The position numbers and the translations under genes were made by a program. Below, one piece after another: positions 8,043-33,517 of a stretch of DNA of 33,517 nt. The notes beneath the pieces are model-generated. The model was given only the letters and a program-made list of their open reading frames with translations. It did no database searches and was not told the DNA's origin. Source of the stretch: a virus. The stretch lies in IMG/VR virus record IMGVR_UViG_3300031565_000199, one strand, 5' to 3'. Each line of letters starts with the position of its first letter. The first letter of the stretch is position 1.

Positions 8043-8347
8043 TATATTCTCGTTTGTGCTTCTCGCTCCTCCGCTTTCAATCGCTCCTGCTCATTGTAAA
8101 ATCCTGTCAACAAATCGATCATTTCCGTGTACCAGTTCGGCTGATCCTCCCACGCGCCTTCGGCCAAAAGATGACCGCCCTTGTAAGCCGCGTGAATAGA
8201 CGCGAAATAGTTAATATGCGGACTGACTGTTTTCCATATGCAACCCTTAACAATGATCGGCTCATATCGGCCTTCCGCAGTGATTACGTGATCGATCTCC
8301 GTTCCGTCCCGACATGTGCATGTTCGCTCGTCTCCCGTGCATTTCAC
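8042..8347 (-). CDS. Tail assembly chaperone, -1 frame extension (T part of G/GT)
   Basis: This ORF is in the -1 frame relative to 8344..8802. The -1 frame is open from the slippery site at 8371-8377 through this ORF, predicting a fusion of about 253 aa. Confidence 0.6.
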   Translation of the reverse strand: MKCTGDERTCTCRDGTEIDHVITAEGRYEPIIVKGCIWKTVSPHINYFASIHAAYKGGHLLAEGAWEDQPNWYTEMIDLLTGFYNEQERLKAEEREAQTRI

Positions 8348-8802
8348 TCCGGAGTAGACGAGCCTGGCGTATTTTTTAACGCCTCGCTATCCTCCTCCGA
8401 TACGTCGTTCCCGCTTTGAATAGCAACGAGAATTTCATCGAACAGGATTTTTGGGATTCGGTTAATGCACTCATCCTTAACTCGCTTGATGAATTTGCGG
8501 CCAACGCGGGTTTCGTCGAATTCGAGTTCCAAACCTTCCAGACCCGAAAGGGCTTTCAGGCCGAAACCCACAATGTCGTAAGACGCGCCGCCCGAATCGT
8601 ATGTATATTCCCGCTCGCGTGTAAATTTCTTTTTACATTCGGGACATAACAATTCCCGCTTTTCGCCCTCGTTCTCGTGCAGGTTGATACCCTGAATGTG
8701 GCTTACGATCTGATTTGTAAGCGGTTCGATCTCGAACGTAACAGTCGCGTCACATTGCGCCGTTATCGTTCTCACTTGATACTTTTCCGGTAATGCTTTC
8801 AT
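8344..8802 (-). CDS. Tail assembly chaperone (G-like)
   Basis: 152-aa acidic protein between the tail tube and tape measure genes, with a GGAG RBS upstream and a slippery site near its 3' end. Confidence 0.6.
   Translation of the reverse strand: MKALPEKYQVRTITAQCDATVTFEIEPLTNQIVSHIQGINLHENEGEKRELLCPECKKKFTREREYTYDSGGASYDIVGFGLKALSGLEGLELEFDETRVGRKFIKRVKDECINRIPKILFDEILVAIQSGNDVSEEDSEALKNTPGSSTPE
8371..8377 (-). promoter_or_regulatory. Candidate -1 programmed frameshift heptamer A_AAA_AAT
   Basis: The minus strand reads gcg TTA AAA AAT acg. The heptamer is in the correct X_XXY_YYZ phase with the 0 frame (..ALKNTPGSSTPE*), 9 codons before the stop. Confidence 0.55.
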
Positions 8803-8829
8803 GCTCGCTTATCTCCTGTCATTTTGTTT

Positions 8830-9780
8830 TTATGTGAATGATATTATGATCGGTGAACCCGTCGCCCAGTCCATCCGCATGTTAATCCGTGCACAATTTA
8901 TTCCGCGGACATCGGTCACGCGGGGCACATCGGTGAGATATCCGTCTCCTGCTATTGATATAACGTATCCCGCCCCGGAACCTATTGCACACTCGAACGG
9001 GAGAAGGGTTCCCGCCGCGAGATCGGTGTAATAATTTTCGGTTGTGAATGACGGGTATGTTACGAGGAAGGAGATCGTCGGGTTCATCATCGTGAAATTC
9101 GGATCGGCAACGCCGCCGTCGGCACCTATACTGAGATTCGGCGAATCGTTACCCGCTCCCGAATTGATCGTGATTTCCTTGAATACGAGCGAGTCCTCAT
9201 TCAGCTTGACCGTGCCTCCGATTGCCGCCGGAGCCGCGCCGCCGTTCGTAAGCGTATCGGTCAACGCCGCGCCTTCAGTCGGGACGGTCATTATCCCGTC
9301 GAAATTCCAGTCGCACATGATCGGCTGCCCGGCCACTATGCGGAACGCGACGTTGCCAAGAGCGTTCGAACAGTTCTGTAAAAGGTTTTTATTCGTTACC
9401 GCCTCTATTCCCATCGATGTTGTGAGATCGACTGCCGTCAGATCATCCGGGTTTCCCGTCGCGGTGTAAGTCGCCGAGGTTGTCCCGGTTGCAGGCGGAC
9501 CACCGCCGACAAGCGTCTCCTTCCATCCGCATCCTTTAAGTAGGTATCCATCCGGAGGAACTTTCGCGCCCGCCGAACTTCCCGAAGGATTGAGGCGGGT
9601 CGTAAACGACAGCCGCGAATACAACCCGCCCGCGACTGGAGGCTGTAAACGATTGAACGGATATTGTCCGGTGTCGTCGAAAACAATCGCCTGAACCGGA
9701 TCGATGCTCAAATTGGAAACGGAGCGGGTAATGGAATTGAACCCGACCCGCGTTAATCTCGTTACATGTGGACTTGCCAT
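8830..9780 (-). CDS. Major tail (tube) protein
   Basis: 316 aa, rich in predicted beta strands and Gly/Thr, located upstream of the chaperone pair. The call is based on position and composition. Confidence 0.55.
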   Translation of the reverse strand: MASPHVTRLTRVGFNSITRSVSNLSIDPVQAIVFDDTGQYPFNRLQPPVAGGLYSRLSFTTRLNPSGSSAGAKVPPDGYLLKGCGWKETLVGGGPPATGTTSATYTATGNPDDLTAVDLTTSMGIEAVTNKNLLQNCSNALGNVAFRIVAGQPIMCDWNFDGIMTVPTEGAALTDTLTNGGAAPAAIGGTVKLNEDSLVFKEITINSGAGNDSPNLSIGADGGVADPNFTMMNPTISFLVTYPSFTTENYYTDLAAGTLLPFECAIGSGAGYVISIAGDGYLTDVPRVTDVRGINCARINMRMDWATGSPIIISFT

Positions 9781-9797
9781 TTCATTCGCTCCTAAAC

Positions 9798-10205
9798 TTA
9801 GTATGTGTATCTAACTATCATAACGAATTCGACCTCACCCATGATCGGCTGCTGTGTAGTGCTTGAAAGCATGACCGCCGGGTAGTGTCGAATGGGTTGT
9901 ATGATTAAAACGCCCAATGCGTTCAGGACTGCCAGTTTCGATGCGCTTAGCCAGAGCTTTATAAGTTCTTCGATTGCAAGCTCGCACTCCTCATCACTGT
10001 GCGCCCAAACGGAAACGGTGAAGGAAAATTCCCGGTCGAGAACCTGCGTCATGTCGAAATTGACCCCGCCACCGCCGAAAACGAGAAGCTCCGCAAACGG
10101 GTAATTTATCTTTTCGCTCGAAATTCCCGCGACGCATTTCGCAATCGACGTTGTTTCGATGTCGGTTATAAGCTGTGTTTTTATCGCGCTTAAAATGCTC
10201 GCCAT
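9798..10205 (-). CDS. Neck / tail-completion protein (hypothetical)
   Basis: The ORF track gives 9798..10298. The likelier start is the ATG at 10205 (MASILSAIK...), which overlaps the upstream TAA by 1 nt. That gives 135 aa, located between the gp10-like genes and the tail tube gene. Confidence 0.45.
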   Translation of the reverse strand: MASILSAIKTQLITDIETTSIAKCVAGISSEKINYPFAELLVFGGGGVNFDMTQVLDREFSFTVSVWAHSDEECELAIEELIKLWLSASKLAVLNALGVLIIQPIRHYPAVMLSSTTQQPIMGEVEFVMIVRYTY

Positions 10206-10738
10206 TATGTTTTCGGCTTCCCTTCCGCCATTAATGCGGCTTCCAGAGCGTATCGTGCGATATCGACGAGATTCAACATCCCGCCGCCGCCTTCCCACTG
10301 GACTTTCAGCGGAGGGCCTAAAAGATTTTCCGGTTGACTCGCGAAATCGGCCAAAGCGTCCATGACGTAATGCTGTCCTGGCAAATCAAAGCCCTTGCGC
10401 TTCGTGAAGAAAACGGTTTCCCCGCCGATCTCCGCAACCATGACTTTCCCCGGCGGGCACTCATAAGGCGGGATATATCCGCCGGTATCCTGAATACGCG
10501 CATAGGGAAGCGGGTTGTCAAGTATAACCGTCCCGTCGGATTTCAATCGAACCGTGCCCGGGTCACTCCACGATGCCCGTAATGCGCCCGTATCGACCGG
10601 GGAATGTTTCGCGAGAAGTCCGCGCAATTCACGCGCTCGATCGGTCGTCGAGATTTCGACAAGGCTTAAATATCTATCGGCGAATTCTAAAGCGATGGTC
10701 TTCCTCCGGTTTCGCCTTTTCGCGCCCAGCGAACCCAC
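10205..10738 (-). CDS. HK97 gp10-like head-tail joining protein (paralog 2)
   Basis: It contains KHSPVDTGALRASW and LPYARIQDTGG motifs, typical of the gp10 family. The start (GVG at 10738) is uncertain. Confidence 0.5.
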   Translation of the reverse strand: MGSLGAKRRNRRKTIALEFADRYLSLVEISTTDRARELRGLLAKHSPVDTGALRASWSDPGTVRLKSDGTVILDNPLPYARIQDTGGYIPPYECPPGKVMVAEIGGETVFFTKRKGFDLPGQHYVMDALADFASQPENLLGPPLKVQWEGGGGMLNLVDIARYALEAALMAEGKPKT

Positions 10739-11160
10739 GTGAACCGTCTTCCCTTCATTAGGTCTTCAAGCCAAGATTTAACGCCGTTTTCTACGAAGTG
10801 TTTGCCGCGAATTCTGTTCGCTCTCATCAATACCGACTTAAAAAAGACGCGCCGTCCGTGCCACATGAAACTCAAAGCCTTTTTGAATCGCGGATAAATC
10901 CGGATATCCCGGCTCGGCCCGCCGAAATTCTGAATAGCGGCATAGCGCGCCGCCGTCGCGGGCGGTTCGACGGCTACGGTGATAACGGTTTCCTCTTTGT
11001 TTATAACGGCGGATGTGGGATTGTCGAAAGCGTGTCGCAATGCGCCCGACGCATAGGGCGTATGATTCTGAATGCACCGGCGCAAGTGTGCGAGTTGGAA
11101 ATCCCAATCGACAACGAGCGGGCGATCCCAGCCAAGTTTTATTGTTTCGCCGTTCGTCAT
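10687..11160 (-). CDS. HK97 gp10-like head-tail joining protein (paralog 1)
   Basis: NHTPYASGALRHAF sits at the position equivalent to the SPVDTGALRASW motif of the next gene. 157 aa. Confidence 0.45.
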   Translation of the reverse strand: MTNGETIKLGWDRPLVVDWDFQLAHLRRCIQNHTPYASGALRHAFDNPTSAVINKEETVITVAVEPPATAARYAAIQNFGGPSRDIRIYPRFKKALSFMWHGRRVFFKSVLMRANRIRGKHFVENGVKSWLEDLMKGRRFTWVRWARKGETGGRPSL

Positions 11161-11206
11161 TTACGTTTGCCTTTTTTCTTTTTCTTTCCGCACGGCATAA
11201 TGCGCC

Positions 11207-11698
11207 TCACTTCAGGACTGTCACGCCCTGCCAGTATTCTATCATGTCGCGAATTTCGCGGGCGACCGATGTACTCGACACCGATCCGCCGCCGACCGAC
11301 TCCGAAATTTCCTTGCATCGATGCGTCGCGAGCCAGTGGAGAATGTCAACCATGACCGTCGGGAAATCGACTCGCGCCCCGGTGACGTTAATTGTTTCCG
11401 TCGAGTGCGTCCCGGTTGTAACCGATATCGATCCGCGAGCGTTAACGAGATAGACGCAATCATCCTCACCCGTAAAGGTTGGGTTGTAAAGCATTAACCC
11501 GTATGAATAGCCGTGATAGTTTTTATAAAGCCCGGTCGTGACCTTTTGAAATACCCACGTCGATTCCTCCGCCATGATGTGCTCGAAAATAAAACGGTTT
11601 ATTTCCGCGTCGCTCATGATCTTGTCCGTGCCCTTCCAGTCCAGGGCAAGGCGGATTTCGTCGAGCACTGTCACGTATGTGTAGGTTGCGGCGGCCAT
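11207..11698 (-). CDS. Head-tail connector / adaptor-like protein
   Basis: 163 aa. The N-terminus (YVTVLDEIRLALDW...DAEINRFI) resembles gp6-like head-tail connectors. It is the first gene after the glyco-island. Confidence 0.4.
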   Translation of the reverse strand: MAAATYTYVTVLDEIRLALDWKGTDKIMSDAEINRFIFEHIMAEESTWVFQKVTTGLYKNYHGYSYGLMLYNPTFTGEDDCVYLVNARGSISVTTGTHSTETINVTGARVDFPTVMVDILHWLATHRCKEISESVGGGSVSSTSVAREIRDMIEYWQGVTVLK

Positions 11699-13482
11699 TA
11701 TATTTCGAGCCTCGTTTCGGACAGAGTTTTAAAAACGATTCCTTCCCGTCGATAATAGTTTATCATACTTTGCAGATTTGCAAGTTGCGACCAGTTTTCG
11801 CCACGCGAATAATCGATAGAACATTCGGCGATTGTCCCGTCGAAATAAGTATCCCCTCGCATATCGACACCACAGAGGATGATTTCCCTCGCGCCTCCCC
11901 GGGCGGCAATATCGATTGCAACCGCGCTTATGCTTCCGTAAGCCCGATATCGTTCGGGGTCGGGTGTAAATTCGCCGTTGGTAAAGCGCGACATCATAGG
12001 GATGACGTAATCGCCGTGTTTGGGTGCGATTTTCAACTCGACAGCTTCACCGAACAGGCGCAAGCCCTTGAACTTTTCAAAGCCGAATTTAAACCATGCC
12101 GTTTTTGGAGCGTCACCGTCCGCGACAACCCACGCATTTATATCGATCGGTATCTCAACTGCCTTGTTTACGGCTATACAATACCCGTCTATTTCGCCCC
12201 AATGTTCTTTACCGTTTGGGCCCGGCGCAAGGATAAAAACGCGCTCGGGTACTGGAAGCGGGTCGTCTATTATGTTTTTGGGAGTCCGGGCGGGGATTCT
12301 CTCAACGTCGAGTTGAGTATCGGAAAGCGACACAATCCGGCATCCGGTCGTTTTCATTGCACGAATAAGATTATTAAAAGCGTCGGCGGCTTTCCAAGTC
12401 TGGCTTTCACGAGTTTGGATATTAATCTTTTTATCCGTTTCCGTCCCGTCGAAATATTTCTCACCGTACATGTCCACGCCACACAGGATTATATTCCGGC
12501 TCCCAAGCAGATAAGCCAGTTGCACGGCCTGACACGCGATTGTCGCATGACAACGGAGTTCGCCGTTTATGCAGTAATGCCCGTCTTCGAGAAGACTTTT
12601 ACCGTGCCGGAATGTGTAGCGAACATCCTTAAATTCCTGTGCGAGTTTGCCCGAATCGAAAACGGGAGTCGGGTTATTCCGATCCATCAGCTCGTATTCC
12701 GAGGCGATGTATTCCCTTGCCGCTTTTTTAAACCATTCCTTTTCCGGAAGCGAGCCGTCGGCACAGAGCCAGATCGATTTGTGAACGCCGGGGATTTCGA
12801 TTGCCTTATTGACGGCAATGACCCATGAGTGAGCGGGGATCTTGTCGTAATGCGCCGCTCCGTTCGGGCCTGTTCCCAATATGTAAACCGGCTCGGTCTT
12901 ATCGAAGCGGAGTTCCGTCGCGAATATATCCGTCGGCTTGTCTCGCAACATCACGCCCTCGCGCTTGATTCCCCAAAACTGAACGTCCGTTCCGTCTGCG
13001 TTGTTTTTTAACTCGTATTCCGTAAAAGCCCGCTTCGGATCGAGCGTCTTTTCAAAGTCGGCGTTCGTGCGATTCTGATACCAATCCAGAGTGAACGGAG
13101 ATGTATGCGAAGAATGTTTTTTCGTCCCGTGCTCATGCCGCTTTTCCGAGGCGCAAGTGATAATCAGAAGTCCGCCGGGCTTTAACATCCGATACATTGC
13201 CCGAAGCGAAAGCTGCCAGTAACGGTCGTGTTCCAACATCTCGGTCGAAATGATCGTGTCGAAATGCTCATCGTGACCGGGGTATTCGTGTGTGCGCGAA
13301 ATGAAGTTTACGTTTTTACCTTCACCCAAATCGATGCCGGTGTATCCGCAATGCGCGAACAGCGGCTTGTTACAGCCGTTTATATCCAGACTTCCACAGT
13401 CCAGGGCGCGTATCCTAAAAAACTTTTCCGGGAATCGCGCCTTGACTTCGTTGCAGAATTTTATTTGGTCGTTGTGCGCCAT
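11698..13482 (-). CDS. Fusion protein: class I SAM methyltransferase plus two Maf/DUF115-like (MAF_flag10) domains
   Basis: The ORF track gives 11698..13545, but the likely start is the ATG at 13482 (MAHNDQIKF). The methyltransferase motifs are ALDCGS, GIDL, DTIISTEMLEH and LKPGGLLIITC (about 13141-13428). The two Maf-like repeats are YILGTGPNG..VIAVNKAIEI..WLCADG..WFK..NIILCGVDMYGEKYFDG (about 12310-12894) and FILAPGPNG..CIAVNKAVEI..WVVADG..WFK..EIILCGVDMRGDTYFDG (about 11710-12243). Confidence 0.65.
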   Translation of the reverse strand: MAHNDQIKFCNEVKARFPEKFFRIRALDCGSLDINGCNKPLFAHCGYTGIDLGEGKNVNFISRTHEYPGHDEHFDTIISTEMLEHDRYWQLSLRAMYRMLKPGGLLIITCASEKRHEHGTKKHSSHTSPFTLDWYQNRTNADFEKTLDPKRAFTEYELKNNADGTDVQFWGIKREGVMLRDKPTDIFATELRFDKTEPVYILGTGPNGAAHYDKIPAHSWVIAVNKAIEIPGVHKSIWLCADGSLPEKEWFKKAAREYIASEYELMDRNNPTPVFDSGKLAQEFKDVRYTFRHGKSLLEDGHYCINGELRCHATIACQAVQLAYLLGSRNIILCGVDMYGEKYFDGTETDKKINIQTRESQTWKAADAFNNLIRAMKTTGCRIVSLSDTQLDVERIPARTPKNIIDDPLPVPERVFILAPGPNGKEHWGEIDGYCIAVNKAVEIPIDINAWVVADGDAPKTAWFKFGFEKFKGLRLFGEAVELKIAPKHGDYVIPMMSRFTNGEFTPDPERYRAYGSISAVAIDIAARGGAREIILCGVDMRGDTYFDGTIAECSIDYSRGENWSQLANLQSMINYYRREGIVFKTLSETRLEI

Positions 13483-14993
13483 AACCTCACGTTGCCGCCG
13501 TCCGGTTTGTAATCGACATTCTTTTCGTCCGGGCGGTCGCCGCATGTATTCGATTGTCCGTGAATGAAATAATATTTATAGCCGGTGTGGTGCATGATCG
13601 GATCATAAATCTTTTCGATGTGGCGTTTCATCGTGTTGTCACGCGCCCCGCCGACAGGCTCTCCGCTCAATCGTTTCGGCGAACGCCATGACGATTCGGC
13701 CTCATAGTCCGTGTTGTAAATTTGCTTTGCGATTGTTTTTAATTCAGCCGTTTTGATAACGAGCGTACCGATGGGCGAACGGTAGAAATAATCCCAGATC
13801 ATGCCGTTCTGCACGACCGCGCAATCGTAATTCCAGCAAAGCGGATGCCCTTTGATTATCGGATCAACGGCTTTGATAGTGTAATCGGGCGGGTATCTGT
13901 CGTCCTCATCCCACCACATCGTGACAGGTTCGCTTGCGATTTCGCAGAATGCCATGAGCTTCAATGTCCATAAATCCGGCCACTCACCCTCTACATCGAT
14001 CTCAACAATGCGGATCGGGAAGTTATGTTTGATTCGAGGCGGGAATTCGCCTCCGTAATTTCGCTGTCTCAACAGGTAAATCGTTTTGAGTTCGGGCGGA
14101 TAGTCCTGATTTATCGCGTCGATAATAGCGTTCATGCGGTCTATCGGGTCGAACGTGAAACAACAATATGCGACGGCGGGAAGCGTTGTCGGTTCCCCGT
14201 TAGCCTTGACCGCTTCGAGAATAGCAACTGTCGGCTTTCGGAGTTTCGTTTCGGAAAGCGTTTCGATCAAAATCCCCTTGCGCTGGTAATATTCGATGGT
14301 GTTATCGAACAGGTCGCGGGCTTGCCATGTTTTGCCGTGCCTCTCATCCTTGCGTATTTCGCCGTCGAAATATTCATCACCGGAAAGGTCGAAGCCGCAC
14401 AGAATGATATGCTTCGCCCCGCACATCGCGGCGATTTCGACAGCCGCACTCCCGACAGTCCCGCCGACGCGAACGCCCGTCTTGTCCGGCTCCCATGCGC
14501 CGTGAGTCGGAGCGCATAGTTTAAATGTAAATTGTTTCGCGGGATCGTTGAAACCTTCCCCGGCCTCCTCCGAAAATATGCGAATGCCGCCGAACGCTTT
14601 CGATGCGGCCTTGAACCATCCGGTCTTCACCGTATCCGGGTCGAGTACGACCCAGCATGAAGGCTTTATCTCCGCTATCGTGACGGCTTTGTTTACGGCT
14701 ATAACGTAAGCAGTCGCGGGTATTTGCTTATAATGTTCGCGACCCTTCACGCCCGATCCGACGATATAAACGACATCGGGCATTTGCAACCCGGATGCGC
14801 GGATATCCTTGATGGGGATTTTTATTTTCGCAGGCCCCGCGAGGTATTCCTTTGCCTCAACAAAATCGAATTCCAGTCGTTCGCCGTCAGCGTTCGAAAC
14901 GTATCTGCCGGTCGATTTGCACCGGATGAAATAAAACCCGGCATCCTTGATGTTCTTGTCTACGGTGAAGGCTTTTATCATCTCGTAAGGCAT
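13461..14993 (-). CDS. Fusion protein: Maf/DUF115-like domain plus C-terminal GT-A-like (family 2-like) glycosyltransferase region
   Basis: The ORF track gives 13461..15029, whose first 12 codons lie in a strong hairpin, so the ATG at 14993 (MPYEMIKAF) is likelier. The Maf-like motifs are VYIVGSGVKG..VIAVNKAVTI..WVVLDPD..WFK..GGTVGSAAVEIAAMCGAKHIILCGFDLSGDEYFDG (about 14244-14777). The C-terminal part is AVAYCCFTFDPIDRMNAIIDAINQDYPPELKTIYLL...MWWDEDDRYPP (about 13725-14183). Confidence 0.6.
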   Translation of the reverse strand: MPYEMIKAFTVDKNIKDAGFYFIRCKSTGRYVSNADGERLEFDFVEAKEYLAGPAKIKIPIKDIRASGLQMPDVVYIVGSGVKGREHYKQIPATAYVIAVNKAVTIAEIKPSCWVVLDPDTVKTGWFKAASKAFGGIRIFSEEAGEGFNDPAKQFTFKLCAPTHGAWEPDKTGVRVGGTVGSAAVEIAAMCGAKHIILCGFDLSGDEYFDGEIRKDERHGKTWQARDLFDNTIEYYQRKGILIETLSETKLRKPTVAILEAVKANGEPTTLPAVAYCCFTFDPIDRMNAIIDAINQDYPPELKTIYLLRQRNYGGEFPPRIKHNFPIRIVEIDVEGEWPDLWTLKLMAFCEIASEPVTMWWDEDDRYPPDYTIKAVDPIIKGHPLCWNYDCAVVQNGMIWDYFYRSPIGTLVIKTAELKTIAKQIYNTDYEAESSWRSPKRLSGEPVGGARDNTMKRHIEKIYDPIMHHTGYKYYFIHGQSNTCGDRPDEKNVDYKPDGGNVRLWRTTTK

Positions 14994-15005
14994 AATATTA
15001 TTGCA

Positions 15006-15034
15006 GGGGAGGGCGGTTTTTGCCGCCACTCCCC
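15006..15034 (-). promoter_or_regulatory. Strong GC hairpin immediately after the major capsid gene
   Basis: The minus strand reads GGGGAG(T)GGCGG-caaaaa-CCGCCCTCCCC, 11 bp with one bulge. No U-run follows, so it is not a canonical intrinsic terminator. It may be an attenuator or an mRNA 3'-end stabiliser. Confidence 0.5.
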
Positions 15035-16062: not shown

Positions 16063-16623
16063 TTAAAATCCGACGAACGTTTTGCCCTTAAGGGATTCTG
16101 CCAAGTTAGCTTTTGCCGCCTCAAGTGAAGACGGAGCGCCGGTCTGGTGCTCCGGGATCACCGGAACATCTTTAAGTTTCGCGGGCTGCATGAATTTGTT
16201 CGCCTCAATAACTTCAGGTTCGGTAGTGTTTGCGGGTGCCGGGGTTCCGGCCTTCGTAGCGTAAAGGTCGAGCCGCGCCTTGTAAGCCGCCGCGCTTGCC
16301 CTGATCTGTTCGGGTGTGTTGCCGGTAATGAAAGCGGCGTCTTCTTTCGAAAGTCCGTTTTCTTCGATCACGTCACGAACGAAGTCCTTGCGTTTCATTT
16401 CGGCAACTTCACGCCTGATGTTAACGACCCCGGAGGTTTCGAGTTCGTCAAGAACGGCCTGAAACTCTTCGGGATGCCGCGCAAAATGAGCGGCCTGTGA
16501 TTTGATTTTCTGCGTTACTTCGGGTGCAGGTTGAGGTTCGGGTTGGGTTACGACCGGAACCGGGACGGGTTGCGCCGGTGTCGGTGTCGTTGGTGTTTGT
16601 GCGTTTGGATCGGTTACTGTCAT
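16063..16623 (-). CDS. Scaffolding protein
   Basis: 186 aa with a Pro/Thr-rich N-terminus followed by helical, charged sequence. It lies between the portal-like and capsid genes and has an AGGAG RBS. Confidence 0.6.
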   Translation of the reverse strand: MTVTDPNAQTPTTPTPAQPVPVPVVTQPEPQPAPEVTQKIKSQAAHFARHPEEFQAVLDELETSGVVNIRREVAEMKRKDFVRDVIEENGLSKEDAAFITGNTPEQIRASAAAYKARLDLYATKAGTPAPANTTEPEVIEANKFMQPAKLKDVPVIPEHQTGAPSSLEAAKANLAESLKGKTFVGF

Positions 16624-16647: not shown

Positions 16648-16676
16648 TATTTATCACATTTCGGTGAATGTGTCAA
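16648..16676 (-). promoter_or_regulatory. Sigma70-type promoter with extended -10 upstream of scaffold and capsid genes
   Basis: The minus strand reads TTGACA (16676-16671), a 17-nt spacer ending in TGa, then TAAATA (16653-16648). The -35 hexamer contains the TGA stop of the portal-like gene. Confidence 0.6.
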
Positions 16677-17710
16677 CGGAAAAGTTTCGTGCCCTTGCGT
16701 TTATAAAGTGCTTCATCAAGGAATCCCTCATCCCGTCCGCGTTTCAGCATGTCCAGTTCCTCGCCTATTTCAAGCGGCGTGAGAATCCCGATTCCACCGA
16801 AATCGACCTCATAGCCGATCATCTCGTAAATATCATCAAGCGCCCGCCGAATGAGTTTGATGTAATGCAGCATCGGTGTCATGGCCAGGCGGCGCGCCAC
16901 TCCCGACATCGTGGCCGTCTCCGATATCTCGACGACGTGGGTGTTTTTGAACCAGAGTTGGATGAGCTTATCGCCTTCCCGCATTAACTGATCCGCCGTG
17001 TTGTTCGACGCGACACGGGTTATAGTCGCGTTGCCGGGGATGTAGATTATCTGCGCCCCCGCTTTAAGTGTCTCCTGCGCTTTTTTCACATCACCGACAT
17101 AGCCGGAAACGACGAGGGAAAGCGATGCCGGGCCTGTTTGCATGCGTATTGAATCCTCGATCTCCTCGATACGCTGATACGTTTTCCGATTCGGCTCAAG
17201 AATGCCCTTACCATACGGGTAAGCAATGAATGCTTCAAGCGGGTATTCGCCCCAATCTGCAATGAGCTTCTGATCCTGCGTGCCGTAAGCTTCGTAATCG
17301 CGCACTGTCCAACCCGTCGCCGTTTTCATATAGACGCGAGTATTCCCCGTTATCGCGCCCTTGTCGTTGCGGATGTGTTGCAGAACGAGATTTTTCTTTA
17401 TGACATAACAATCTCGCAGGAATAAATACTTTTCATCCTCACCTTCGGGGATTAAGCGGAGCGCGAACGATCCGTCAACGAGAAGTTGCTCACTCATTTT
17501 CTCAATCGGTATTTCCGGCCACTCGGTCGCGCTTGTCGCTTTTAATTCCGAATCGCCAGCGATGAATGCTTCAAGGATTTCCGGTGTGCTCTTGTTCAAG
17601 CCGGTGTAGCTTTGTTCCTCGAATATTTCGCGACCCGTGAGGATCGGGTATTCATCGCTCATTTTAACCGGGGTTATGATTGTGTCGAGTAATCCTTTTT
17701 GTTCGGGCAT
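16673..17710 (-). CDS. Portal protein (small, putative)
   Basis: 345-aa ORF immediately downstream of TerL. The call is positional, and the protein is short for a portal. Confidence 0.5.
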   Translation of the reverse strand: MPEQKGLLDTIITPVKMSDEYPILTGREIFEEQSYTGLNKSTPEILEAFIAGDSELKATSATEWPEIPIEKMSEQLLVDGSFALRLIPEGEDEKYLFLRDCYVIKKNLVLQHIRNDKGAITGNTRVYMKTATGWTVRDYEAYGTQDQKLIADWGEYPLEAFIAYPYGKGILEPNRKTYQRIEEIEDSIRMQTGPASLSLVVSGYVGDVKKAQETLKAGAQIIYIPGNATITRVASNNTADQLMREGDKLIQLWFKNTHVVEISETATMSGVARRLAMTPMLHYIKLIRRALDDIYEMIGYEVDFGGIGILTPLEIGEELDMLKRGRDEGFLDEALYKRKGTKLFR

Positions 17711-17711
17711 T

Positions 17712-19007
17712 TTATAACGCCTCCATTGAATACATTCCCATCCAAGCCATGCATAGGGCCATCCATTTGTCGCTGTGTTCGAATTCCATTTTCCCGTCCT
17801 TCTCCCGAACCTCGTACATCAATCCCTCGTAGTGATCCAGCGCCGTTTGCGATGCGACTCCGAAACGCTCCTCGCGGATTGCTATCGACGTTTCATGCCA
17901 GAACTGCTCTTTGAGTTCGGCGGTCGTGTTCAGTCCGCGCAAGCCTTTGAACGGACCATCGTTGAGTATATCATAAAACGCCTGGCCGACTCCGTTCGTC
18001 TCGACGATGATGTTCTCGCGCCGCCAGTAATGCCGCCCGTTAATCCAGTCGTAAATCGCTTCTGCCTGATGCACGTAATCGACACCGCTTATTTCAAACT
18101 CGTCGATCTCGTTTATGATTTTCCCGTTCCGCCCGTTGACGACAGCTAGCACTTTAACGACGGTCGAGTCGATTATCTTGCCTACGTCGATTCCAAAATA
18201 GTTTTCAGGCATGATCCCGCGCTTGATGAAATCCATGATGTCGATTTTGCCCGGGACGCTCGGATACATGAGCCGCATTCCCTCAACGGCTTGCTCACAG
18301 AGATAGTGCTGTCTCCATTGCCAGTCGGGAAGGTTTTTCTTCTCCTCCTCGAAAACTGGAATCCATGAGGGATCGATACGGGTTATATCGTCAGCGGTGT
18401 ATCGGATCAGCTTGTAATTGTCGTGAAGTTTCCGCTCCTCAATCAGCCGCGACTTGTGCCCACCGACTCCCAAGATAACGAAACGTGCACGCCCCTCCTG
18501 CCTCGCGATGTTGAGAAACGGAGAGAAAATCCCGGCGATATCCGGGCTTACGCGATGCCCCTCGTCGATAATGAGCATGTCCGCATGATAGCCCTCTGGC
18601 TTGGATGCGGTCGTCTCGTTCGACGAGAGCGCGTAAAGTTCGCCCTCGTAATCGGGATCGGCGGGGATGACCCAGCGTTTCTCGGTCACGTCCGCCTTTT
18701 TCTTTTTCCACCCGGGCACTTGGGAAGTAAACTTGTCAACGTTTCTCTCCGTCTCGCGTGCGAGAAGCCGCGTCGATTGTGTGAGTGTGGGGAATGCGAT
18801 GATGTCCGTGTTGCCGCCGATAATCGTTGTAGCGCCGACAAGAGCGGCAACCCATGTTTTCCCGAACGCCTGGCGCGGGCCCTGAATGATCGTATTCGGG
18901 TTATCGCAAATGGCGCGTGCGCTTTCGGCCTGCCATTCGCCGCGCCATGAATAGTCCAGGCCGCGACGGATGCGGTCAACTGCCTGCATTGTCAGGGGAT
19001 GCTTCAT
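17712..19007 (-). CDS. terL: Terminase large subunit
   Basis: 431 aa with a Walker A-like GPRQAFGKTW, a Walker B MLIIDEGH, and a C-terminal RNaseH-like nuclease region (FGIDVGKIIDSTVV...IIVETNGVG). Confidence 0.8.
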   Translation of the reverse strand: MKHPLTMQAVDRIRRGLDYSWRGEWQAESARAICDNPNTIIQGPRQAFGKTWVAALVGATTIIGGNTDIIAFPTLTQSTRLLARETERNVDKFTSQVPGWKKKKADVTEKRWVIPADPDYEGELYALSSNETTASKPEGYHADMLIIDEGHRVSPDIAGIFSPFLNIARQEGRARFVILGVGGHKSRLIEERKLHDNYKLIRYTADDITRIDPSWIPVFEEEKKNLPDWQWRQHYLCEQAVEGMRLMYPSVPGKIDIMDFIKRGIMPENYFGIDVGKIIDSTVVKVLAVVNGRNGKIINEIDEFEISGVDYVHQAEAIYDWINGRHYWRRENIIVETNGVGQAFYDILNDGPFKGLRGLNTTAELKEQFWHETSIAIREERFGVASQTALDHYEGLMYEVREKDGKMEFEHSDKWMALCMAWMGMYSMEAL

Positions 19008-33350: not shown

Positions 33351-33517
33351 AATTTTCACCACAATAAAAACAATGTGTCTTAACGCGCTTTTTTTGTCCG
33401 CAAGCGGGGCATTTCCCGCGAGGTTCCCGCTCAGATTTAATCTTTTCTTTTATTTCCGCCAACTCATCCGCTTCCGGCATGTATCCAAAAAACAATTTAG
33501 TCACATGGCCGTTATGT
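33343..33517 (-). CDS. C-terminal part of the junction-spanning gene (33391..33517 duplicates 1..127)
   Basis: It is in frame with 1..300 across the junction and ends ...CPACGQKKRVKTHCFYCGENYE*, with the TGA at 33343-33345. Confidence 0.6.
   Translation of the reverse strand, partial: HNGHVTKLFFGYMPEADELAEIKEKIKSEREPRGKCPACGQKKRVKTHCFYCGENYE
33391..33517. repeat. Terminal direct repeat, copy 2
   Basis: Identical to bases 1..127. Confidence 0.9.

Follow-up and report, generated by a model that had tools for sequence, protein, structure and literature searches.

The Maf (motility-associated factor) enzymes, which add nonulosonic acids to the flagellins of Campylobacter, Aeromonas, Clostridium botulinum, Geobacillus and Magnetospirillum, O-glycosylate surface-exposed Ser/Thr residues of a self-assembling structural protein before its assembly. 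They consist of three domains, an N-terminal Rossmann-like domain, a central CstII-like domain (PF01973) and a C-terminal helical FliS/flagellin-like domain, and two of them, CbMaf and GkMaf, accept the cytidine monophosphate (CMP)-activated sugars CMP-Neu5Ac and CMP-Kdo (PMC11339370). We analyzed a 33,517-nucleotide (nt) stretch of viral DNA, the IMG/VR record IMGVR_UViG_3300031565_000199 (hereafter the window), in which two co-directional long open reading frames, ORF A and ORF B, form an island of ~3.3 kb, ~10% of the ~33.39-kb genome, among the morphogenesis genes. The island encodes three copies of a DUF115/MptE-like (PF01973) domain, a domain resembling glycosyltransferases of the GT-A fold and an S-adenosylmethionine (SAM)-dependent methyltransferase. 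It is very probably a glycosylation system, a role suggested by the original prediction, which was made from the letters of the window, and now strongly backed by the comparative context. On balance we favor, as a fairly probable reading, a phage-encoded cytoplasmic system that moves CMP-activated ulosonic acids onto virion proteins, with additional GT-A and methylation steps.

The island resembles Maf in several respects: the catalytic core lies in PF01973, the enzymes are soluble and cytoplasmic and frequently come in several paralogues, the expected donor is a CMP-ulosonate, and the modification of a structural protein before assembly would be a common feature. The phage domains differ from Maf in their size, ~190 amino acids (aa) without the Maf N- and C-terminal domains, in their fusion partners (GT-A domain, methyltransferase or a further DUF115 copy), and in their position in a head module with no flagellin. 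Because they match the central Maf core alone, we regard them as DUF115 sialyltransferase-like domains and not as Maf orthologues.

The best TM-scores are those of the Campylobacter jejuni GT42 enzymes CstI and CstII and of the GT29 fold (ST8SiaIII, ST6GalNAc2), and the core motif R-x-T/S-G...A..LG..I.L.G.D of the phage domains aligns with CstII. On the other hand, the sequence matches to CstI/CstII lack significance (E = 0.85-1.9), the phage domain is the smaller one and has no conserved counterpart of His188, and the substrate of the Cst enzymes is lipooligosaccharide rather than protein. The archaeal 6-hydroxymethyl-7,8-dihydropterin diphosphokinase MptE also belongs to PF01973 and has a similar single-domain size; the phage domains differ from it by the absence of a folate/pterin context, by glycan-enzyme neighbors and partners, by their paralogue arrays and by a fold nearer to sialyltransferases than to a kinase of the thiamin pyrophosphokinase (TPK) type.

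In mycobacteriophages, phage glycosyltransferases add sugars to the subunits of capsid and tail tube (Freeman 2023, cited in PMC12619734). Actinophage cassettes (mycobacteriophages, phiPsal1) are similar to the island in having glycosyltransferase genes within the structural operon. In phiPsal1, a putative case, the order capsid-GT1-methyltransferase-GT2-neck occupies the same slot and includes a homologue of the ORF B methyltransferase. The actinophage systems rely on conventional GT-B/GT2 enzymes and nucleoside diphosphate (NDP)-hexoses, whereas the conserved core enzyme here is a sialyltransferase-like DUF115 domain, of which one to four copies occur, and nonulosonic-acid synthesis genes accompany it in a relative.

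The DUF115 domains and their fused partners

The three DUF115 copies align across ~190 aa with 33-41% identity and 43 invariant columns. A family hidden Markov model (HMM), whose underlying alignment itself contains the three copies, matches them at E = 1e-65 to 1e-76, far beyond chance. The threefold presence of the domain had been noticed in the original prediction, and the three motif ranges quoted there translate exactly (HIILCGFDLSGDEYFDG, NIILCGVDMYGEKYFDG and EIILCGVDMRGDTYFDG). The PF01973 gathering score of 34.6 is passed by both proteins (36.9 bits for ORF A and 37.7 bits, in two stretches, for ORF B). In an alignment of 16 family domains the GxGxxG, VN(K)A (N invariant, A nearly so) and R..T..G...D..G..YFDG motifs are strongly conserved, and several of these residues stay nearly invariant across the 144 closest family representatives.

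The AlphaFold2 (AF2) model of copy 1, computed from the 16 family domains, has a predicted local distance difference test score (pLDDT) of 90.3 and a predicted TM-score (pTM) of 0.89. Foldseek comparison of this model with the PDB detected CstII (E = 5e-4, TMq 0.61), ST8SiaIII (E = 4e-3, TMq 0.51) and ST6GalNAc2 (E = 1e-2). By TM-score, the closest structures to the model are the CMP-sialic-acid transferases CstII and ST8SiaIII, and the modeled fold is of the sialyltransferase alpha/beta type. No significant PDB sequence match was found with single proteins or with domain profiles; the family profile gave six sub-threshold PDB matches, two of which are CstII (E = 0.85) and CstI (E = 1.9).

In the profile alignment with CstII the R..T..A..GA..I.L.G.D motif falls on R129...G152-I-D154, with no conserved counterpart of the catalytic His. 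We take R129, T131/S132, D154, Y156/Y162 and H188 to be the CMP-binding and catalytic residues of CstII. Counterparts of R, T, G-x-D and YFDG, as placed by this alignment of E = 0.85, are conserved in the 16 domains. Weak matches to phrog_4603 ('alpha-2,3-sialyltransferase') and to the WaaZ Kdo transferase both fall on the R..T..A..GA..I.L.G.D..G..YFDG motif.

An exhaustive domain profile search retrieved 1,652 cluster representatives, 149 of them at E <= 1e-30, which are mostly stand-alone proteins of ~200 aa. PF01973 is matched by 97 of the 144 closest representatives (best 6e-15), and the fusion partners in this set are GT2, TylF/Methyltransf_24, sulfotransferase and Nucleotid_trans domains, with no folate enzyme or kinase. 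BFVD and UniProt contain similar uncharacterized proteins from uncultured phages and some giant viruses, several of them automatically labeled 'MptE-like'; the Pfam label 'MptE-like pterin diphosphokinase' on such UniProt phage proteins is probably misleading. A tblastn search of 50,697 GenBank phage records with ORF A and two stand-alone family members gave only a weak match, in an unannotated 462-kb uncultured phage. At this sensitivity no compact DUF115 domain was detected in cultured GenBank phages, and the window has no DNA similarity to GenBank phages.

The C-terminal part of ORF A had been described as GT-A-like with a DEDD motif, and structure prediction agrees. The AF2 model of ORF A has a mean pLDDT of 70, with values mostly of 70-93 in the C-terminal domain, and the top Foldseek matches of this domain are all GT-A enzymes: 6p61 (E = 2.6e-5, TMt 0.67), SpsA, alpha-1,3-GalT and ppGalNAc-T. 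The DEDD motif comes after a predicted strand (E357-362) and aligns with DADD of 6p61; within W-W-D-E-D-D the residues D362, D364 and D365 are invariant in nine homologues. The profile of the domain has 6p61 as its sole PDB match (E = 0.48). PF00535 (Glycos_transf_2) is matched by five of ten homologous C-terminal domains (best 1.6e-5), and the window's own domain gives no Glycos_transf_2 match at E <= 1. As modeled, the ORF A C-terminus has a GT-A fold with a DxD motif.

A domain of ~68 aa precedes the first DUF115 domain in ORF A, in the related proteins P0009, P0010 and P0127 and in the minimal single-domain relatives (e.g., L022:659-1555). Its modeled secondary structure comprises two strands (E3-10, E19-25) and a helix (H44-52). 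This domain may serve in acceptor recognition and may dock onto the target.

ORF B starts with a SAM methyltransferase, as originally proposed: besides phrog_32762, it matches Methyltransf_11 (30.8 bits, threshold 21.2) and Methyltransf_23 (28.9 bits, threshold 27). Its motif I is atypical, LDCGS in place of GxGxG. The domain is 45-50% identical to one fused with GT9, GT2, GT25 or GT1 in more than 100 proteins. These fusion proteins (P0017-P0126) are metagenomic, ~900 aa long, with a few named bacterial proteins besides; the GT9 part is annotated as 'autotransporter O-heptosyltransferase', and the proteins are uncharacterized. In Pontimonas phage phiPsal1 (MG835450.1 6979-9351) a 36%-identical methyltransferase flanked by GT1 and GT2 lies between the capsid and neck genes, and in Synechococcus phage S-CBS4 a homologue follows two glycosyltransferases downstream of the portal gene. 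The cultured actinophage phiPsal1 is a testable model of virion glycosylation beyond the mycobacteriophages.

Conservation of the island among related phages

Six full-length relatives of ORF A were detectable among 5.8 billion proteins, and its homologues include proteins of 72%, 41% and 44% identity. The relatives that define the lineage have large terminases (TerL) 34-87% identical and putative capsid proteins 29-63% identical to those of the window. Lineage contigs that cover the stretch from capsid to connector all carry the DUF115 domain in the slot, in one to four copies. The possibility raised in the original prediction, that comparison with related phages would reveal a one-off insertion, thus does not hold: a DUF115 gene occupies the slot in every relative found, down to 29% identity of the putative capsid protein. 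In five contigs, the DUF115 gene encodes a minimal single-domain protein of 290 aa without a GT-A domain. These minimal relatives were recovered from IMG/VR by a TerL profile and an exact-DNA search; scans of IMG/VR with the three-copy alignment and with the connector alignment gave no matches.

The composition of the island varies among the relatives. The closest relative has three DUF115 copies together with GT-A, methyltransferase and TylF-like methyltransferase domains, and contig L015 has three DUF115 copies and two GT-A domains. The L015 protein P0127 (L015:7585-10725; 1,046 aa) consists of two DUF115 domains followed by two tandem GT-A-like domains, 31% and 40% identical to that of the window.

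Contig L006 (TerL 42% identical, same gene order) has four DUF115 copies, two of them in further stand-alone genes. Its island (8298-14337) also holds a NeuB-family synthase (Pfam 3e-66), a CTP_transf_3 cytidylyltransferase, a PseH-like GNAT and two TylF/Methyltransf_24 genes resembling sugar O-methyltransferases. NeuB is found in just 3 of the 50,697 GenBank phage records.

In a neighbor-joining tree, computed with no bootstrap, the three copies of the window fall in three paralogue clades, each with members in other phages. A recent tandem triplication, as implied by the original description of a triplicated domain, was therefore rejected: the copies sit in three separate old clades of this unbootstrapped tree. 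Relative to L002, which is 72-77% identical, the dN/dS ratio is 0.09 for ORF A and 0.13 for ORF B, a constraint like that on the portal and the putative capsid.

Arrays of two to five DUF115 copies, accompanied by methyltransferases and GNATs, lie beside terminase or portal genes in unrelated phage types, some of which have an HK97-type capsid or a P22-type portal. Four to five DUF115 genes in a row are also present in L035 and L036, which are other uncultured phage contigs. We regard as established the domain identities and folds, the conservation of the slot across the lineage, the association with glycan enzymes and the presence of nonulosonic-acid synthesis genes in a relative.

Donor, acceptor and alternative explanations

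The donor chemistry, the glycosyltransferase activity, the acceptor and the order of steps are what we infer from these results, and the scheme would be as follows. The island would be expressed together with the late morphogenesis genes and act in the cytoplasm. The three compact DUF115 domains would be inverting, sialyltransferase-like transferases whose donor, a CMP-activated ulosonic acid, comes from the host pool; the sugar, Kdo or a nonulosonic acid of the Pse/Leg/Neu type, would be linked either to Ser/Thr residues or to a glycan under construction. The three copies are old paralogues and would probably differ in linkage or acceptor. The GT-A domain would add a sugar from an NDP-sugar via its DxD/metal site, and the methyltransferase would cap or tailor the glycan. 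The likeliest acceptors would be the phage's own virion proteins (capsid, tail tube, connector), modified before or during assembly, which would give the particle a glycan coat. That the DUF115 domains use CMP-ulosonates is probable; that the virion is the target we rate only a little above even.

As the original prediction had stated, the phage has no sugar-nucleotide biosynthesis genes, none being present among the precomputed Pfam matches for the genes listed on near-identical contigs, and it would therefore draw on host sugar pools. A Gram-negative host would not need the pse/leg pathway that the original prediction proposed to look for, because the sugars accepted by Maf enzymes include CMP-Kdo and CMP-Neu5Ac besides Pse/Leg donors. 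Essentially every Gram-negative bacterium produces CMP-Kdo.

Several results weigh against this scheme. The PF01973 scores are ~2-3 bits over the threshold, and this family includes a pterin diphosphokinase. The lowest Foldseek E-value for copy 1 belongs to the thiamin pyrophosphokinase 3k94 (E = 4e-4, TM 0.44), and a counterpart of the catalytic His188 of CstII is not conserved among the copies in the 16-domain alignment. The solved Maf of Magnetospirillum is absent from the profile matches at E <= 10 and from the best 50 Foldseek matches. Of the Maf/DUF115 identity first proposed, the DUF115 part stands, with the PF01973 threshold passed, and the strict Maf part does not, since the Maf N- and C-terminal domains are absent and the solved enzyme was not retrieved. 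NeuB together with a cytidylyltransferase is present in only one (L006) of ~25 related loci. In other phage types the cassette adjoins the terminase and not the capsid gene, which fits late expression and not specifically a capsid target. The 'major capsid' identity of the ORF A neighbor is putative, given by gene order alone, and profiles of ORF A and of TerL detected no relative in 185,579 GTDB species genomes that would indicate the host.

The Pfam and Foldseek results could be explained if the DUF115 domains were MptE/TPK-like diphosphokinases or other nucleotide-dependent enzymes, with a small molecule or a phage macromolecule (DNA, for example) as substrate. The family is named for a pterin diphosphokinase, the top Foldseek E-value is that of a TPK, and the lack of a conserved CstII-type catalytic His would suit such an enzyme. 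The TM-scores point the other way, with 0.51-0.61 for the sialyltransferases versus 0.44 for TPK, and the fusion partners and neighbors are all glycan enzymes (GT-A/GT2, GT4, O-methyltransferases, GNAT, sulfotransferase, NeuB, cytidylyltransferase). The genome has no folate, thiamin or hydroxymethyl-pyrimidine pathway genes, and arrays of two to five paralogues suit linkage-specific transferases, not a metabolic kinase. We consider a kinase-like function very unlikely; the pterin-kinase match, which the original prediction had named as its own counter-case, gained no support, as every fusion partner and neighbor builds or tailors glycans. DNA glycosylation was considered too and rejected, since no hydroxymethyl-pyrimidine genes are present.

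It is also conceivable, but unlikely, that the virion proteins are glycosylated with the GT-A domain doing the chemistry, the DUF115 domains using a non-ulosonic donor or being non-catalytic carbohydrate- or capsid-binding modules. This would account for the many related loci (most of them) that have no NeuB and cytidylyltransferase, and no catalytic base is assigned in the DUF115 domains. The strong conservation of the nucleotide-binding-like motifs in the 16 domains argues against it, and the characterized relatives of the fold, pterin and thiamin kinases aside, all use CMP-ulosonates. The minimal relatives have one DUF115 protein and no GT-A domain, and the DUF115 protein must therefore function by itself.

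A virion protein is proposed as the acceptor because of the fixed position in the head module, the translational coupling to structural genes, the actinophage precedent and the 68-aa N-terminal domain. The same enzymes could instead modify a host surface glycoconjugate or protein (lipopolysaccharide, capsule, S-layer, flagellin, pilin), which would serve to block superinfection, to keep progeny off debris or to alter the receptor. Host-seroconverting phage glycosyltransferases are well known, the known DUF115 enzymes modify flagellins (PMC11339370), and in several other phage types the cassette lies beside the terminase and not the capsid gene. Yet no integrase or lysogeny genes are among the Pfam matches of the genome, no transmembrane segments are predicted in the ORF A or ORF B proteins, and these proteins have no counterparts of the flagellin-binding N- and C-terminal domains of Maf. 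The genes are also translationally coupled to structural genes. The fixed presence of DUF115 in the head module across the lineage, even in single-copy minimal genomes, is unusual for a host-manipulation moron. The flagellin-remodeling version suggested at first gains no support, and flagellar genes are absent from the complete phage genome and from every related locus. A host-surface acceptor is thus improbable in our estimate, and each of these rivals, host-surface, kinase-like and non-ulosonic, is less supported than transfer of CMP-activated ulosonic acids onto virion proteins.

Within the putative capsid protein, a 30-aa stretch (aa 45-74) is 40% Ser/Thr, and this composition, not the sequence, is kept in L002, L006, L008 and L015. 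Such Ser/Thr-rich stretches could, speculatively, be O-glycosylation sites, and their composition offers the putative capsid protein as a candidate acceptor, a lead to follow. A tube-sized protein (8830-9780) has a similar Ser/Thr patch.

Extended to the lineage, virion glycosylation can be put in a more specific form, which we offer tentatively and hold at somewhat less than even. A widespread uncultured phage lineage, probably of groundwater, sediment or freshwater, may have fixed a compact DUF115 ulosonic-acid transferase in its head module and may coat its own capsid or tail with sialic-acid-like sugars. Some members might then have expanded the island to multi-enzyme glycan assembly lines, one of which brings nonulosonic-acid synthesis and CMP activation; this second part we judge, with the same reserve, possible and not yet probable.

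To our knowledge, experimental proof that phage enzymes glycosylate virions is limited to mycobacteriophages, whose glycosyltransferases are of conventional types. Glycosylation of mycobacteriophage virions alters antibody recognition. We found no paper on DUF115/sialyltransferase-like enzymes in phage structural modules or on nonulosonic-acid decoration of virions. Virion glycosylation per se is already known, and such phage proteins are already in databases. The claim of the original prediction that the arrangement is undescribed stands as far as papers are concerned and is qualified by the uncharacterized DUF115 entries of uncultured phages in UniProt/BFVD.

If the proposed function is correct, the phage would provide the first case of virion proteins 'sialylated' by phage-encoded enzymes, and its ~190-aa domains would represent a new minimal family of protein-directed ulosonic-acid transferases, which has ~1,650 cluster representatives and might be of use in glyco-engineering. 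These representatives, almost all from uncultured phages, would gain a concrete testable function. Particles bearing acidic nine- or eight-carbon sugars would differ in charge, stability and adhesion, and in how hosts, grazers or immune systems recognize them. Maf enzymes are explored for neo-sialylation of recombinant proteins, a purpose for which a ~190-aa core and its modular partners might be simpler to use.

Gene layout and genome of the window

The coordinates of the island and of its neighbors are given in Table 1. An identical 127-nt direct repeat is present at the window ends (1-127 and 33391-33517), and the window therefore represents the whole genome of ~33.39 kb, assembled as a circle or terminally redundant. 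Every long gene of the window is on the minus strand, and the original description of the island as two co-directional long ORFs covering about a tenth of the genome was accurate. In the direction of transcription the late region has the order TerL, portal-sized, scaffold-like, 286-aa protein, ORF A, ORF B and small head-tail joining genes.

Table 1. Features of the island and the adjoining late genes (window positions; ORF lengths from the gene calls)
Feature	Position	Strand	Basis or remark
Large terminase (TerL)	17712-18989	-	PHROG phrog_2, E = 1e-14
Portal-sized protein	16673-17710	-	size, gene order
Scaffold-like protein	16063-16623	-	weak PHROG matches
Putative major capsid protein, 286 aa	15069..15929	-	gene order only
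ORF A, 510 aa: small N-terminal domain, DUF115 copy 1, GT-A-like domain	13461..14993	-	
N-terminal domain, ~68 aa (ORF A aa 1-68), beta-rich in model	14790..14993	-	
DUF115/MptE-like, sialyltransferase-like domain, copy 1	14220..14789	-	PF01973 E = 4e-9; family HMM 9.6e-72
GT-A-fold glycosyltransferase-like domain	13461..14210	-	Foldseek, family PF00535 matches
DEDD, candidate DxD metal and nucleotide-sugar binding motif	13899..13910	-	translation, conservation
ORF B, 594 aa: SAM methyltransferase, DUF115 copy 2, DUF115 copy 3	11698..13482	-	
Class I SAM-dependent methyltransferase domain	12943..13482	-	phrog_32762 1.7e-41; Methyltransf_11/23
DUF115/MptE-like domain, copy 2	12289..12906	-	family HMM 2e-76; PF01973 stretch aa 217-359
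DUF115/MptE-like domain, copy 3	11701..12258	-	family HMM 3.4e-65; second PF01973 stretch
First downstream head-tail joining gene	11207..11698	-	adjoins island in relatives too

The labels 'capsid' and 'connector' for the neighbors of the island come from the gene order (TerL, portal-sized, scaffold, 286-aa) and from weak HK97-gp10/Neck1 matches of one of the small head-tail joining genes. The 286-aa protein has no usable match as a capsid protein in Pfam, PHROGs or PDB. The location first reported for the island, between capsid and connector genes, is thus supported as a place in the morphogenesis operon, and the naming of the two flanks remains putative.

From the first possible starts the longest forms are 522 aa for ORF A (13461..15029) and 615 aa for ORF B (11698..13545), and the gene calls on identical contigs start at 14993 and 13482. 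The start of ORF A is ambiguous: a GTG at 15029 has AAGGGGGA directly upstream with a spacing of just 1 nt, the gene callers take the ATG at 14993, and the closest homologue begins at the equivalent of 14981. ORF A and ORF B overlap by 22 nt, and the ORF B stop overlaps the start of the next gene by 1 nt. The terminator scan of the window found 7 terminator-like matches, all short-stemmed, versus 9.2 expected in shuffled sequence, with no strong (long-stem) site seen between the structural genes.

A 383-aa ORF antisense to the island (11677-12828, plus strand) has no support as a gene and is probably a shadow of ORF B. A 443-aa N6/N4 DNA methyltransferase (PF01555; 21980-23311, minus strand), unrelated to the island, is encoded upstream of the packaging genes.

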